Shown here: positions 13,646 through 17,745 of the stretch, piece after piece | How the letters are laid out: each line of letters opens with the position of its first letter | Numbering within the stretch: position 1 is the first letter of the stretch | IMG/VR virus record: IMGVR_UViG_3300046385_000116 | Source: an uncultured virus (IMG/VR IMGVR_UViG_3300046385_000116) | Lineage: Duplodnaviria > Heunggongvirae > Uroviricota > Caudoviricetes | Direction: 5' to 3' (one strand) | DNA: 20,000 nucleotides | Program-made: the position numbers and the translations under genes | The notes under the pieces: generated by a model | Told to the model about the DNA's origin: nothing | Databases searched by the model: none | The model's input: the letters and a program-made list of their open reading frames with translations, nothing else

Positions 13646-14028
13646 GTAATCCATTTGATTATGTAAATTCAATTTTACAAAACAAAACACAGATGATGGT
13701 CGATGATGCCACTGAGGCAGCCTATGTTTCATTCTTAGTAAATCGTAGTCTATCCTACCATATGGACACGATTGCTTTCGCAAATGAGATGAACCGCAGA
13801 CACTTTATAGACAAGAAAATGCAGTTCGATTTTTTACTAAATACAGTAAGGTCAAAGAAACGACCTTTTGCGAAGTGGGCAAAACCTGAGAAAAACGATG
13901 ATTTATCATGTATCAAACAAGTCTATGGTTTCTCAGACTCCAAAGCTCGTGATGCTTTACGCCTACTAAGTGATGAACAAATCCAAAAATTAAAAGAAAA
14001 AACCGATGTCGGTGGATTGAGGAAATAA
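13642..14028 (+). CDS. gp62: Clamp loader small subunit
   Basis: PFDYVNSI, FLVNRSLSY..D....NEMN, QFDFLLN, KWAK. Confidence 0.9.
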   Translation: MSNPFDYVNSILQNKTQMMVDDATEAAYVSFLVNRSLSYHMDTIAFANEMNRRHFIDKKMQFDFLLNTVRSKKRPFAKWAKPEKNDDLSCIKQVYGFSDSKARDALRLLSDEQIQKLKEKTDVGGLRK

Positions 14029-14029
14029 C

Positions 14030-14434
14030 ATGGTAGACCTATCAACTTTCGTTGAAGTGAAACTAAATGAACAAGATGATTTTTTAAAGGTACGTGAAAC
14101 TTTGACCCGTATCGGTGTATCATCACGCAAAGAAAAGGTATTATACCAGTCTTGTCATATACTTCACAAACAAGGACAATATTACATTGTTCATTTTAAA
14201 GAATTATTTGCATTAGATGGTAAGCCTTCTAATATATCTGAGAATGATATTCAACGCAGAAATGCTATTGCAAACCTGTTGGAAGAATGGGGATTGGTTA
14301 CAATTATTAACCCACAAATTATGGTTGACAACATCGCACCTATTCATCAGATTAAAATCATTTCATATCGTGAAAAGGATGAGTGGGAATTAATCAGTAA
14401 ATATAATATTGGTAAGAAAAAAACCGATTATTGA
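14030..14434 (+). CDS. regA: Translational repressor RegA
   Basis: DDFLKVRETLTRIG, LYQSCHILHKQG.YYIVHFKELF.LDG, W.L..KY.IG. Confidence 0.97.
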   Translation: MVDLSTFVEVKLNEQDDFLKVRETLTRIGVSSRKEKVLYQSCHILHKQGQYYIVHFKELFALDGKPSNISENDIQRRNAIANLLEEWGLVTIINPQIMVDNIAPIHQIKIISYREKDEWELISKYNIGKKKTDY

Positions 14435-14442
14435 TATAAATA
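14435..14442 (+). promoter_or_regulatory. T4-type late promoter
   Basis: Exact TATAAATA immediately after the regA stop codon. Confidence 0.7.
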
Positions 14443-14448
14443 ATTATT

Positions 14449-14625
14449 ATGAAAACTGTGAAATTAAAAAATATATTCAACGGAGAAATAGTGTTCTGTA
14501 ATGATTTAAATAATATTACAGAAGCTAACGGTACTAAATTTATTACCGTATTCAAAGAAGAACATAGTCAAAGGACTTTTTTAGTTAATAAAGAGGCCTT
14601 TGAAATTGTAACGGATACACCTTAG
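14449..14625 (+). CDS. Small hypothetical protein (58 aa, not in ORF track), probably leaderless
   Basis: MKTVKLKNIFNGEIVFC...EIVTDTP*; fills the gap after regA; ATG 6 nt downstream of TATAAATA. Confidence 0.6.
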   Translation: MKTVKLKNIFNGEIVFCNDLNNITEANGTKFITVFKEEHSQRTFLVNKEAFEIVTDTP

Positions 14626-14793
14626 GACCGCTAAGTAACGTATCGTGGATAAAACGGCTACAACGATAGGGTAGCGCCAGAGCTCGTAACTGGCAGTCAA
14701 AAGTGGAACTCGGTCCTACTGCGACTTAATACTCCGAGGGATAGGTTACGGGACACCTACACAAGAAGTCCCTCACCACGCCTTATGGGTGGT
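14621..14793 (+). ncRNA. Highly structured RNA element upstream of hsp20 (family not recognised)
   Basis: Six adjacent hairpins plus three loop-mediated complementarities in a locally GC-richer non-coding stretch. Confidence 0.7.
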
Positions 14794-14824
14794 AAAATTT
14801 AACTCGCTTAATAGGAGATTTAAC

Positions 14825-15283
14825 ATGACATTTCATAAATTTGTTGCAAATGATTTAAACCGTATTGCACAACAAGCCGTTGGTTTTGACCGTATGTTCG
14901 ATGTATTTGAAAATATGGTTGCAGAAAAATCAACATATCCCCATCATAATATTATTAAAACAGGTCAAGAAACTTATCTTGTAGAATTGGCAGTAGCTGG
15001 TTTCGATGATAAAGATATTTCTATTGAACTTGAAAAGAATGTTCTACACATTCGTGGTGATAAAGCAGAAGAACTGGATCCAGATTTTGAATATTTACAT
15101 CGTGGTATTGCGACCCGTTCTTTTCATAAAACAATTCAATTAGCTGATACAATTGAAATTGATGATGCTGTTTTAGAAAATGGTATTCTTAGATTATTTT
15201 TACAGAATATTATTCCTGAAGAAAAGAAACCTAAGAAGATTCCAATCACCAAAGCGGGCAAGAAACAACTCTTGACTGAGTAA
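14825..15283 (+). CDS. hsp20: Small heat shock protein (Hsp20/IbpA-like)
   Basis: YPHHNI, ELAVAGF, YLHRGIATRSF, LENGIL, PEEKKPKKIPI; AGGAG upstream of ATG 14825. Confidence 0.93.
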   Translation: MTFHKFVANDLNRIAQQAVGFDRMFDVFENMVAEKSTYPHHNIIKTGQETYLVELAVAGFDDKDISIELEKNVLHIRGDKAEELDPDFEYLHRGIATRSFHKTIQLADTIEIDDAVLENGILRLFLQNIIPEEKKPKKIPITKAGKKQLLTE

Positions 15284-15290
15284 CCTCAAT

Positions 15291-15319
15291 GGTGTGGATG
15301 TTTGCCGCATCCACACCTT
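15291..15319 (+). terminator. Hairpin after hsp20 (terminator or mRNA-stabilising stem)
   Basis: GGTGTGGATG / CATCCACACC perfect 10-bp stem but only a short T tail. Confidence 0.45.
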
Positions 15320-15342
15320 AACTATGATATAATAGTTATATT

Positions 15343-16275
15343 ATGAAAATTGCTTTAGCGTCTGACCTCCATTTAGAATTTGCCGACATCTTATTGAAAA
15401 ATACTGATGGTGCTGACGTATTACTTTTAGCTGGTGATATTTGTGTTGCCCATAATTTGATGGAAGACGGAGCTGCATTTGCTGAAAAATCACGGAGACT
15501 CCACGATTTCTTCAAAAGATGTTGCTTTCAATTTCCTCATGTAATCTATGTGGTTGGTAACCATGAACACTATCATGGTGACTTTAAATATACAGTATCA
15601 CATTTGAAAAGAATGTTGAGTTATTTACCTAATTTGGTTATCTTAGATACTGAAGCCTTTACATTGGGTGATGTAACATTTATTGGTGGTACTTTGTGGA
15701 CTGATATGAACAAAGAAGATGCTTTGACTTTGTTTCATATGCGTAGTAGAATGAGTGACTATCATGTAACAGAAAATAGTCACCGTATGATACAGAAAAA
15801 AGTTCCATTGTATGAATTGAATCCTGATTACACACCTGATGGTCGTAATGGTGGAATGTATAAAATTGATGAGAATGGATACTATAACAAAATTGGTGAA
15901 AAGACCAAAGAAGAACCTAGTAAACTTCATCCAGAAGATACGGTTGAGTATCACAAAAAGATGGTCGACTATATCAAAATTGTAACTGGTATGTTTGCAA
16001 ATCCACAGAAGTATGTTGTGGTTGGCCACCATTCACCAAGTAAAGCATCAACACATCCTCGATACAAAGAAGATACATTGATGAACGGTGCATACAGTAG
16101 TGATTTGTCTGAGTTCATTTTAGATAGACCACAAATTAAGTTATGGGTTCACGGTCACACACATGACCCATTTGATTATATGATTGGTAGTACCAGAGTT
16201 GTCTGTAATCCTCGTGGTTATCATGGCCACGAAAGACAAGCAGATTTATTTGAATTAAAATTTATGGAGATATGA
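15343..16275 (+). CDS. Calcineurin-like metallophosphoesterase
   Basis: SDLHLE, AGDI, GNHE, GHHSP, HGHTH, NPRGY. Confidence 0.9.
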   Translation: MKIALASDLHLEFADILLKNTDGADVLLLAGDICVAHNLMEDGAAFAEKSRRLHDFFKRCCFQFPHVIYVVGNHEHYHGDFKYTVSHLKRMLSYLPNLVILDTEAFTLGDVTFIGGTLWTDMNKEDALTLFHMRSRMSDYHVTENSHRMIQKKVPLYELNPDYTPDGRNGGMYKIDENGYYNKIGEKTKEEPSKLHPEDTVEYHKKMVDYIKIVTGMFANPQKYVVVGHHSPSKASTHPRYKEDTLMNGAYSSDLSEFILDRPQIKLWVHGHTHDPFDYMIGSTRVVCNPRGYHGHERQADLFELKFMEI

Positions 16276-17668: not shown

Positions 17669-17745
17669 AGCGGGATAGCTCAGTCTGGTAGAGCGATGGA
17701 CTCATAATCCATAGGTCGTTGGTTCGAATCCTTCTCCCGCAACCA
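17669..17745 (+). tRNA. tRNA with CAT anticodon (Met/fMet or Ile2)
   Basis: GCGGGA/TCCCGC acceptor with A1:A72 mismatch, D-arm GCTC/GAGC, anticodon arm ATGGA-CTCATAA-TCCAT, TTCGAAT T-loop, encoded CCA. Confidence 0.9.

Follow-up and report, generated by a model that had tools for sequence, protein, structure and literature searches.

The hsp20 leader and its relatives

The 20,000-nucleotide stretch of DNA analysed here, called the window, comes from an uncultured virus of the Caudoviricetes (IMG/VR record IMGVR_UViG_3300046385_000116) and is part of a T4-like phage present in freshwater metagenomes. Our subject is the leader of its hsp20 gene, which encodes a small heat-shock protein, and the RNA element that fills this leader downstream of regA. 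An initial annotation, made from the window alone, had placed a compact RNA of six hairpins and three long-range complementarities at 14621-14793, and all of them are present where it had drawn them. Comparison with related phages reveals that the element is a real, conserved RNA of the + strand and that it is longer, from 14619 to 14817. It is made up of four parts: a core of hairpins and pseudoknots (14619-14694), an insert (14695-14774), the hairpin H4 (14775-14793) and a hairpin holding the Shine-Dalgarno (SD) sequence of hsp20 (14803-14817). The stretch flagged at first is a GC island, with 47-50% G+C against a background near 30%, and no second copy of the core was found in the window. 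The features of the locus are collected in Table 1.

Table 1. Features of the regA-hsp20 locus and of the RNA element, in window coordinates (PK, pseudoknot; MFE, minimum free energy)
Feature	Position	Strand	Description and basis
regA	14030-14434	+	PF01818, 154.8 bits; directly upstream of the element region
TATAAATA box	14434-14441	+	T4-type late-promoter-like box upstream of ORF58; read from the sequence
ORF58	14449-14625	+	Open reading frame of 58 codons
ACCUUAGG motif	14619-14626	+	Most conserved motif, 5' edge of core; at most 1 mismatch in all classes
H1	14621-14635	+	CUUAG/CUAAG, loop GACCG; conserved in class 2, variants keep 4-6 pairs (by eye)
PK-A	14641-14668	+	S1 core CGU 14644-46 with H2 loop ACG 14663-65; covariation counts
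PK-B	14654-14687	+	S2 ACGG 14654-57 with H3 loop UCGU 14684-87; covariation, alignment A1 and 109 cores
H2	14657-14675	+	GCUAC/GUAGC, 9-nt loop AACGAUAGG; two-sided changes in 5/5 pairs (A1)
H3	14676-14694	+	GCCAG/CUGGC, loop AGCUCGUAA; 4/5 pairs covary (A1)
X1	14695-14738	+	Putative H-type pseudoknot: hairpin AGUC/GACU + AGUGG/CUACU, loop CUCGG 14709-13 with CCGAG 14734-38; L538
X2	14742-14772	+	Putative H-type pseudoknot: stem UAGGU/ACCUA 14742-46/14755-59, loop GGGAC 14750-54 with GUCCC 14768-72; L538
H4	14775-14793	+	ACCAC(G)CC-UUAU-GGGUGGU, bulged G; MFE, 88 leaders, part of sub-threshold ROSE_3 match
SD hairpin	14803-14817	+	CUC(G)CU 14803-08, loop UAAU 14809-12, AGGAG 14813-17; MFE at 5-50 °C, motif statistics
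hsp20	14825-15283	+	Small heat-shock protein, presumed regulated cistron; PF00011, 56.7 bits; phrog_432
tRNA-Met (CAU)	17669-17745	+	62.5 bits

Between regA and the element lies ORF58, for which no Pfam or PHROG match was found. Its stop codon TAG (14623-25) is contained in both the conserved ACCUUAGG motif and the 5' half of the H1 stem, and ribosomes that terminate there would open H1. A homologue of ORF58 is present in the related loci L005-L007; L538 and L533 have none, and regA abuts the element in both. The TATAAATA box, which from T4 biology we take to be a T4-type late promoter, is the likely start of the transcript carrying the element, predicted at 14434, and many related loci have such a box 10-45 nucleotides (nt) 5' of their core or H4. 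The gene next after hsp20 encodes a metallophosphoesterase.

Relatives of the element were collected by three independent routes, namely the Hsp20 protein, a leader motif and core motifs. Hsp20 relatives in IMG/VR gave 80 loci, and the protein-selected set totals 160 (2 x 80); among the first 80, 24 loci carry an element bounded by ACCUUAGG and AACUCGCUUAAUAGGAG and measuring 109-199 nt. A scan with a 17-mer from the leader returned at least 119 stretches, and two scans with core-only patterns at least 120 matches each. The family thus extends over hundreds of phage contigs, and the window holds its longest form. Near-identical copies of the window element are found in L002, L001, L003 and G001, and L538 is the only diverged copy of the whole long form that was found. 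The element is 88.1% identical to the window in L538 and 98.5% in L002, compared with 67.6% (start of the gene) and 85.9% for the hsp20 coding sequence, and 77.8% and 92.5% for the 3' end of regA. Conservation of the element exceeds that of regA and hsp20 alike, which demonstrates that selection acts on the RNA.

Searches beyond IMG/VR returned little. Near and distant BLAST against 50,697 phage records found one 45-nt match in regA and none for the element. A metagenome scan by Hsp20 yielded nothing closer than 50% amino acid identity and therefore no extra variants of the insert. Thirteen loci were obtained when genome contigs were scanned by Hsp20, the best of which resemble, by eye, phage-type leaders on contigs of metagenome-assembled genomes (MAGs). 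The core model R1 had no match, at E up to 0.01, in 151 sampled genomes from the order of one such MAG; a weak R1 match in that MAG (19.8 bits) was dropped, as it is without the core motifs. One phage contig with an hsp20 leader, L146, carries a transfer-messenger RNA of betaproteobacterial type (448-817, - strand; RF01850, 127.6 bits), which hints at the host group.

Covariation establishes the fold of the core

Taken alone, the window sequence says little about the fold. The + strand gives an MFE z-score of -1.17, the - strand one of -1.56. Between 14621 and 14793 there are 23 Watson-Crick-complementary 5-mer pairs; mononucleotide shuffles give 12.2 +/- 4.2, and 11 of 500 attain the observed number, while the 6 complementary 6-mer pairs compare with 2.9 in shuffles (66/500) and the single 8-mer pair is matched in 64/500. 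Loop partners are thus expected by chance in one sequence, so that the test must be comparative, and the argument of the initial annotation that partners for five of six loops were unlikely by chance does not stand, as the 6-mer and 8-mer counts lie within the shuffle range. These counts and the modest + strand z-score are what the simplest alternative would need, namely that the hairpins and the pairings of their loops reflect chance complementarity within a GC-rich spacer. Against it stand the covariation in H2, H3 and PK-B described below, three compensatory changes in L538, conservation above that of the flanking genes and the hundreds of family members. As an account of the element it is next to negligible: it is refuted for the core, H4 and the SD hairpin, and possible for two of the complementarities drawn initially, GACCG/CGGTC and CTCGTA/TACGGG.

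Fifty-four distinct core sequences were aligned (alignment A1), and H2, H3 and PK-B were counted. In this fold 98.4% of cells are paired, against 74.1% in shuffles; H2 and H3 served to select the sequences and PK-B did not, so that for the two hairpins the percentage is partly set by construction. The covariation score is 0.667 compared with 0.203 in shuffles, none of 500 shuffles reaches it, and it falls to at most 0.099 when partners are slid by 1-3 columns. H2 and H3, the second and third hairpins of the initial annotation, both come out of this comparison confirmed (Table 1), and L538 adds to H3 the compensatory pair C14678U/G14692A. G-U pairs are frequent at some positions (GU in 45/54 at columns 41-75, UG in 30/54 at columns 67-78); as these would be A-C on the other strand, the + strand is the RNA strand.

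PK-B, which the initial annotation did not contain, is the best-supported pseudoknot. In the window it comprises A14654-U14687, C14655-G14686, G14656-C14685 and possibly G14657-U14684, G14657 being also the first base of H2; its GU belongs to the conserved end GUAA of the H3 loop. The variable pair, columns 43-73 of A1, reads UA in 33 sequences, CG in 9, GC in 8, AU in 3 and otherwise in 1. The distinct cores from all loci number 109, and 103 of them have this pair (UA 61, GC 26, CG 10, AU 6), a level reached in 0 of 1000 shuffles; the six unpaired cases are probably class-3 sequences that the parser placed out of register.

The complementarity TATCGT/ACGATA of the initial annotation corresponds to PK-A and is upheld in part. 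Its three core pairs CGU/ACG are kept in 53, 54 and 52 of the 54 sequences, with the variants UGU/ACA in 2 and CGG/CCG in 1; class-3 members dropped by the filter read, by eye, CGAG/CUCG and CGAG/UUCG. The extension to 6 bp seen in the window (UAUCGU 14641-46 with ACGAUA 14663-68) is not general: the flanking pairs are kept in only 17 and 20 of 54 sequences, and the three outer pairs are lost in L538. The loop pair CTCGTA (14683-88)/TACGGG (14747-52) fared worse in the same comparative check and was rejected, as it shares loop bases with the covarying PK-B, lies partly in an insert that most members lack and has one break in L538.

At the 5' edge, the pairing context of ACCUUAGG depends on the class: the motif is part of the H1 stem in the window and lies in a hairpin loop in others. 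Pairings of ACCUUAGG with the SD region, with AAGG segments and with the H4 loop, and a CGCU/AGCG hairpin competing with PK-A, were considered by eye and dropped, being inconsistent across classes. Apart from ACCUUAGG, few unpaired positions are invariant in A1.

The fold of the core is thus shown by covariation. In Rfam 15, no family matches the core or the insert at the gathering score, whether in the window or at 20 related loci, and none matches the core at E up to 10. The initial annotation had proposed a tertiary-folded RNA without a known family, and this agrees with our results; the core is a new structured RNA motif, with clean covariation and no Rfam entry. Its further suggestion of a ribozyme or a riboswitch fits them poorly. 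A compact, covarying double pseudoknot of about 75 nt, with a hairpin and a ribosome binding site downstream of it, is indeed what an aptamer or a self-cleaving RNA could look like, but no Rfam family of either kind matches at E up to 10 and the invariant unpaired positions are few. Moreover, inspection by eye showed no pairing mutually exclusive with H4 or the SD hairpin, both hairpins are unchanged in leaders without the core, and no ligand suggests itself for an hsp20 operon. We regard such a function as very improbable.

The insert adds about 80 nt to the leader; members of about 126 nt, such as L056, run H3 almost straight into H4. It was seen only in the lineage of the window, where only L538 varies. 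As gaps introduced by MAFFT shifted CCAAG and GTCCC in L538, helices were taken from its own sequence. For X1, L538 has CTTGG...CCAAG, a compensatory change of C14711U with G14736A, and the AGUC/GACU + AGUGG/CUACU hairpin, the fourth of the initial annotation, is invariant between the two. For X2, it has TGGGT...ACCCA (A14743G/U14758C) and keeps GGGAC...GTCCC. The fifth hairpin drawn initially is accordingly divided, its inner stem TAGGT/ACCTA being compensated in L538 and its outer stem GAGGGA/TCCCTC reduced there from 6 bp to at most 3 bp. Over the whole element L538 shows three compensatory pairs and no change that breaks a proposed stem, and this one diverged homologue gives thin sequence support to the view that the insert may form two H-type pseudoknots. 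The initially drawn pair GACCG (14626-30)/CGGTC (14711-15) competes with X1 for 14711-13; the change in L538 only turns a G-C into a G-U pair, and a possible alternative state is how we read it.

X1 and X2 resemble modules found 5' of the core in other phages, in which a hairpin loop pairs with a downstream segment and, by eye, loop and partner covary. Leader modules of two kinds, M1 and M2, recur 5' of the core or of H4, for example in L034, L105, L106, L171, L103 and L183. M1 reads (A)UCCC-N3-4-GGGAUGGGAAC and stands directly after TATAAATA. M2, which X2 resembles, is a hairpin with a loop often ending in GUAA; this loop pairs with a segment that lies some 8 nt further downstream, and by eye loop and partner covary (GGAGGU/ACCUUC, GGCAGU/ACUGUC, UGGUA/UACCA, UGGGGG/CCCCCA).

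The ROSE-like hairpins ahead of hsp20

H4, the sixth hairpin of the initial annotation and likewise confirmed by comparison, is the counterpart of 'hairpin I' in short ROSE-like elements. Across 88 distinct leaders its stem letters differ widely while the hairpin itself is retained. The mean MFE of this 42-nt region is -10.9 kcal/mol in the 88 leaders against -5.1 kcal/mol after shuffling; counts of the longest contiguous stem did not tell the two apart, as the stems are interrupted by the bulged G. H4 does not qualify as an intrinsic terminator, AAAAUUUAAC being the sequence that comes after it, and no terminator-like site was found in 14000-15400. Downstream of H4, the leader continues with AAAAUUUAA, then CUCGCU-UAAU-AGGAG, seven bases and the AUG of hsp20. 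This start codon lies within a small predicted hairpin, AUGA-CAUU-UCAU (14825-14836), present in the MFE structure up to 42 °C; L002 and L538 do not conserve it.

ROSE-like thermometers are defined by a U(U/C)GCU stretch imperfectly paired with the SD sequence, with a bulged G (as described in PMC11342760 and PMC3669281). The phage leader has these features: it is the 5' untranslated region (5'UTR) of a heat-shock gene, UCGCU (14804-08) stands opposite the SD sequence AGGAG, and G14806 is predicted to be bulged in the MFE structure at all temperatures tried. The initial annotation had mentioned a thermosensor among its suggestions, and that direction appears right; the hairpin responsible, at 14803-14817, lies outside the stretch it had delimited. 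ROSE_3 (RF02523) is the top Rfam match in the window (17.9 bits, E 0.31). It also matches 8 of 20 related leaders without the core, at 17.8-31.4 bits (best E 0.0034), and is the only recurrent Rfam match at E up to 10, on the 3' part.

The motif statistics tie this anti-SD sequence to hsp20. Among the protein-selected loci, the motif precedes an open reading frame (ORF) of at least 50 codons in 145/160. When distinct leaders are counted, it is present ahead of hsp20 in 79 of 98 and ahead of the small ORFs preceding hsp20 in 16 of 18; of 44 leaders of other genes only one has it, and this gene is an hsp20 missed by the pattern. The letters of the SD-hairpin loop vary (UAAU, GAAA, AAAC, AACAU and others) and both strands of the stem are fixed, a combination that fits a hairpin. 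From the motif, the SD hairpin is expected to respond to temperature.

In many phages, for example at L067:1712-1933 and in L034, L050 and L056, the ROSE-like leader and hsp20 are separated by a conserved ORF (MLNNINTAID..., about 74 codons) that belongs to no Pfam or PHROG family. Its end (..KKAFAK..) encodes UUUGCU or UUCGCU 8 nt 5' of the AGGAG of hsp20, which makes this a putative second ROSE-like anti-SD within a coding sequence.

The closest known system is that of the Pseudomonas ibpA thermometers, which are described as two hairpins, the first GC-rich and heat-stable, the second short and holding the SD sequence, with the AUG outside (ROSE_3, RF02523; PMC3669281). The phage leader shares with them, as far as that description goes, the position in the 5'UTR of a small heat-shock gene, the order of GC-rich hairpin, single-stranded linker and short second hairpin, the imperfect pairing of U(U/C)GCU on the SD sequence with a bulged G, and the start codon outside; the MFE structure of 14775-14840 reproduces this two-hairpin architecture. 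The differences are that the element is carried by a phage, that its SD stem has only 5 bp and a 4-nt loop, that it scores 17.9 bits (relatives at most 31.4) where the gathering score is 43, and that its temperature response is a prediction from the motif. At this locus, in addition, about 175 nt of pseudoknots precede the sensor, which ROSE elements are not known to have.

Classical ROSE elements (ROSE1 of Bradyrhizobium, E. coli ibpA) are described with three to four hairpins, of which only the last holds the SD sequence, opposite the same anti-SD motif (PMC11342760, PMC3669281), and this too is shared by the phage leader. In contrast to their simple hairpins, the upstream domains of the phage are pseudoknots with loop-to-flank pairings, and as a module they are separable, being present at some loci without hsp20 and absent from most phage hsp20 leaders. 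Among phages, a 2024 account counts only three RNA thermometers, lambda cIII, the fourU of SPbeta blyA and a sigma-70 fourU in a gut Caudoviricetes (PMC11182007). These have in common with our leader a phage-borne, temperature-sensor-like structure, but are single cases of other types, built on alternative structures or fourU. The phage hsp20 leader is ROSE-like, counts hundreds of members and stands before an auxiliary chaperone gene. The literature searched, with subscription journals outside it, held no prior report of a phage hsp20 leader or of the core, and the sensor is a new, sub-threshold variant of the ROSE-like thermometer in an unusual carrier.

Core, sensor and the possible roles of the leader

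Where the core occurs, the sensor usually follows. Among the matches listed, every class-1 core (113/113) and 108 of 114 class-2 cores are followed by U(U/C)GCU-N2-8-AGGAG and then by hsp20 or the small ORF; six further matches per class, with too little downstream sequence, were set aside. The core occurs once per genome in all four complete core-bearing phage genomes (150-174 kb), and in hsp20 leaders it always lies upstream of hsp20 on the same strand. It is thus tied to its genomic place, and usually to hsp20. By a slight preference over all other explanations together, we take 14619-14817 to be a composite hsp20 leader, in which a ROSE-like thermosensor is joined to a new pseudoknot domain whose role we infer.

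In such a leader, transcription would start probably at the TATAAATA box at 14434 and include the upstream ORF58. H4 would act as a rigid GC-rich hairpin ahead of the SD hairpin, in which CUC(G)CU would mask the SD sequence AGGAG and limit access of ribosomes to hsp20 in the cold. Warming would melt the short SD hairpin and open hsp20 to translation, to judge from the motif. The array 5' of the sensor, made of H1, H2, H3, PK-A and PK-B of the core and, in the lineage of the window, X1 and X2, may fold on its own into nuclease-resistant blocks. The sensor could thereby be shielded and insulated from the translated ORF58 as well as from decay that depends on the 5' end, and a stable leader fragment would be left. 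Nuclease resistance and insulation are in this scheme a conjecture about the array.

An RNA-library run, X24, bears on the last step. It gave a single contig of 223 nt, at a depth of 3.1, that covers 14615-14830, and none in ORF58 or in the body of hsp20. As one contig from one study, it is a weak hint of a stable RNA fragment; the stretches left uncovered in X24, like the small shares covered in other runs, carry no weight here.

Several observations weigh against a composite thermosensor leader. On the side of the sensor, the ROSE_3 score in the window, 17.9 bits, leaves the element outside that family, and the SD hairpin shows no covariation, both its strands being invariant. RNAalifold returned no structure on the MAFFT alignment of the 88 leaders, which variable loops had left poor. 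ViennaRNA predicts the SD sequence (14775-14840 folded) to be paired throughout 5-50 °C, with an unpaired probability of 0.11-0.23. Nearest-neighbour models handle the ROSE-type motif poorly. On the side of the core, the model R1 finds it in 21/80 and 9/80, together 30/160, of the protein-selected hsp20 loci, compared with 145/160 for the anti-SD motif; the core is therefore not needed for the thermosensor, and H4 and the SD hairpin are unchanged in leaders that lack it. Among the class-2 matches listed, six loci (L320, L330, L343, L361, L379, L397) are without hsp20, so that there the core is not an hsp20 leader. The X24 contig has its own weakness, as contigs cannot show RNA ends and DNA may contaminate an RNA library.

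At the six loci the order is regA stop, core, hairpin, a sigma-70-like promoter-like site (TTGnnn...TATAAT) and the phosphoesterase gene. By eye, their cores differ at about 7 of 77 positions, with all stems kept and a C-to-U change that restores an H2 pair, while the DNA just 3' of them cannot be aligned between loci. The core seems to be under selection even without hsp20. The alternative that these loci bring to mind is that the core, alone or together with the insert, works as an autonomous RNA beside the thermosensor, either a stable non-coding RNA or an element of the regA-operon 3'UTR, for example an exonuclease block or a trans-acting RNA with ACCUUAGG as its seed. Apart from the preserved stems at the six loci, the optional presence of the core in hsp20 leaders, the limits of the X24 contig and the conservation of the element above both neighbouring genes would be accommodated by it. 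Yet the window shows no terminator-like site between core and hsp20 and no evident promoter of the core's own, the core beginning inside the ORF58 stop codon; no target was found for a ACCUUAGG seed; and a single recent loss of hsp20 may lie behind all six loci. We consider this unlikely, though the strongest competitor of the composite leader.

Next in rank, ahead of a riboswitch or ribozyme, is the proposal that the pseudoknot domain is a protein-binding translational operator for phage Hsp20, RegA or a host protein. A precedent is given by IbpA, which is described as repressing its own translation through the ibpA 5'UTR, also a ROSE-like thermometer (PMC10474464); that system and ours share a small heat-shock gene with a ROSE-type leader, and protein binding is a possible role for the extra domain of the phage. 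RegA, a translational repressor, is encoded directly upstream, and regA abuts the core in L538, L533 and the six loci without hsp20. Finally, the conservation of ACCUUAGG across classes that differ in its pairing context suggests a sequence-specific reader. But regA may be a neighbour by synteny alone, most hsp20 leaders lack the core, and the ibpA RNA determinants, as that source describes them, are not pseudoknots (PMC10474464); the phage case is only a lead. Such an operator would be conjectural, and we hold it to be improbable.

A wider proposition about the core is possible, and we put it forward tentatively, with more doubt than trust. The core of about 75 nt (ACCUUAGG, S1, S2, H2 and H3) may represent a new class of autonomous phage RNA domain, selected even without hsp20, that would block nucleases, capture a protein or pair in trans through ACCUUAGG. 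The leaders would then be shuffled modules (core, M1/M2, X1/X2) set before a ROSE-like sensor.

For the composite leader, the consequences reach beyond the window. A ROSE-like hairpin masking the SD sequence stands before hsp20 in most of the T4-like phage contigs sampled (145/160), and if this sensor works, control of an auxiliary chaperone gene by temperature or stress would be a common trait of these phages. The core is a compact double-pseudoknot fold that RNA biologists could solve, and for phage biology it is a candidate module of mRNA stability or regulation.

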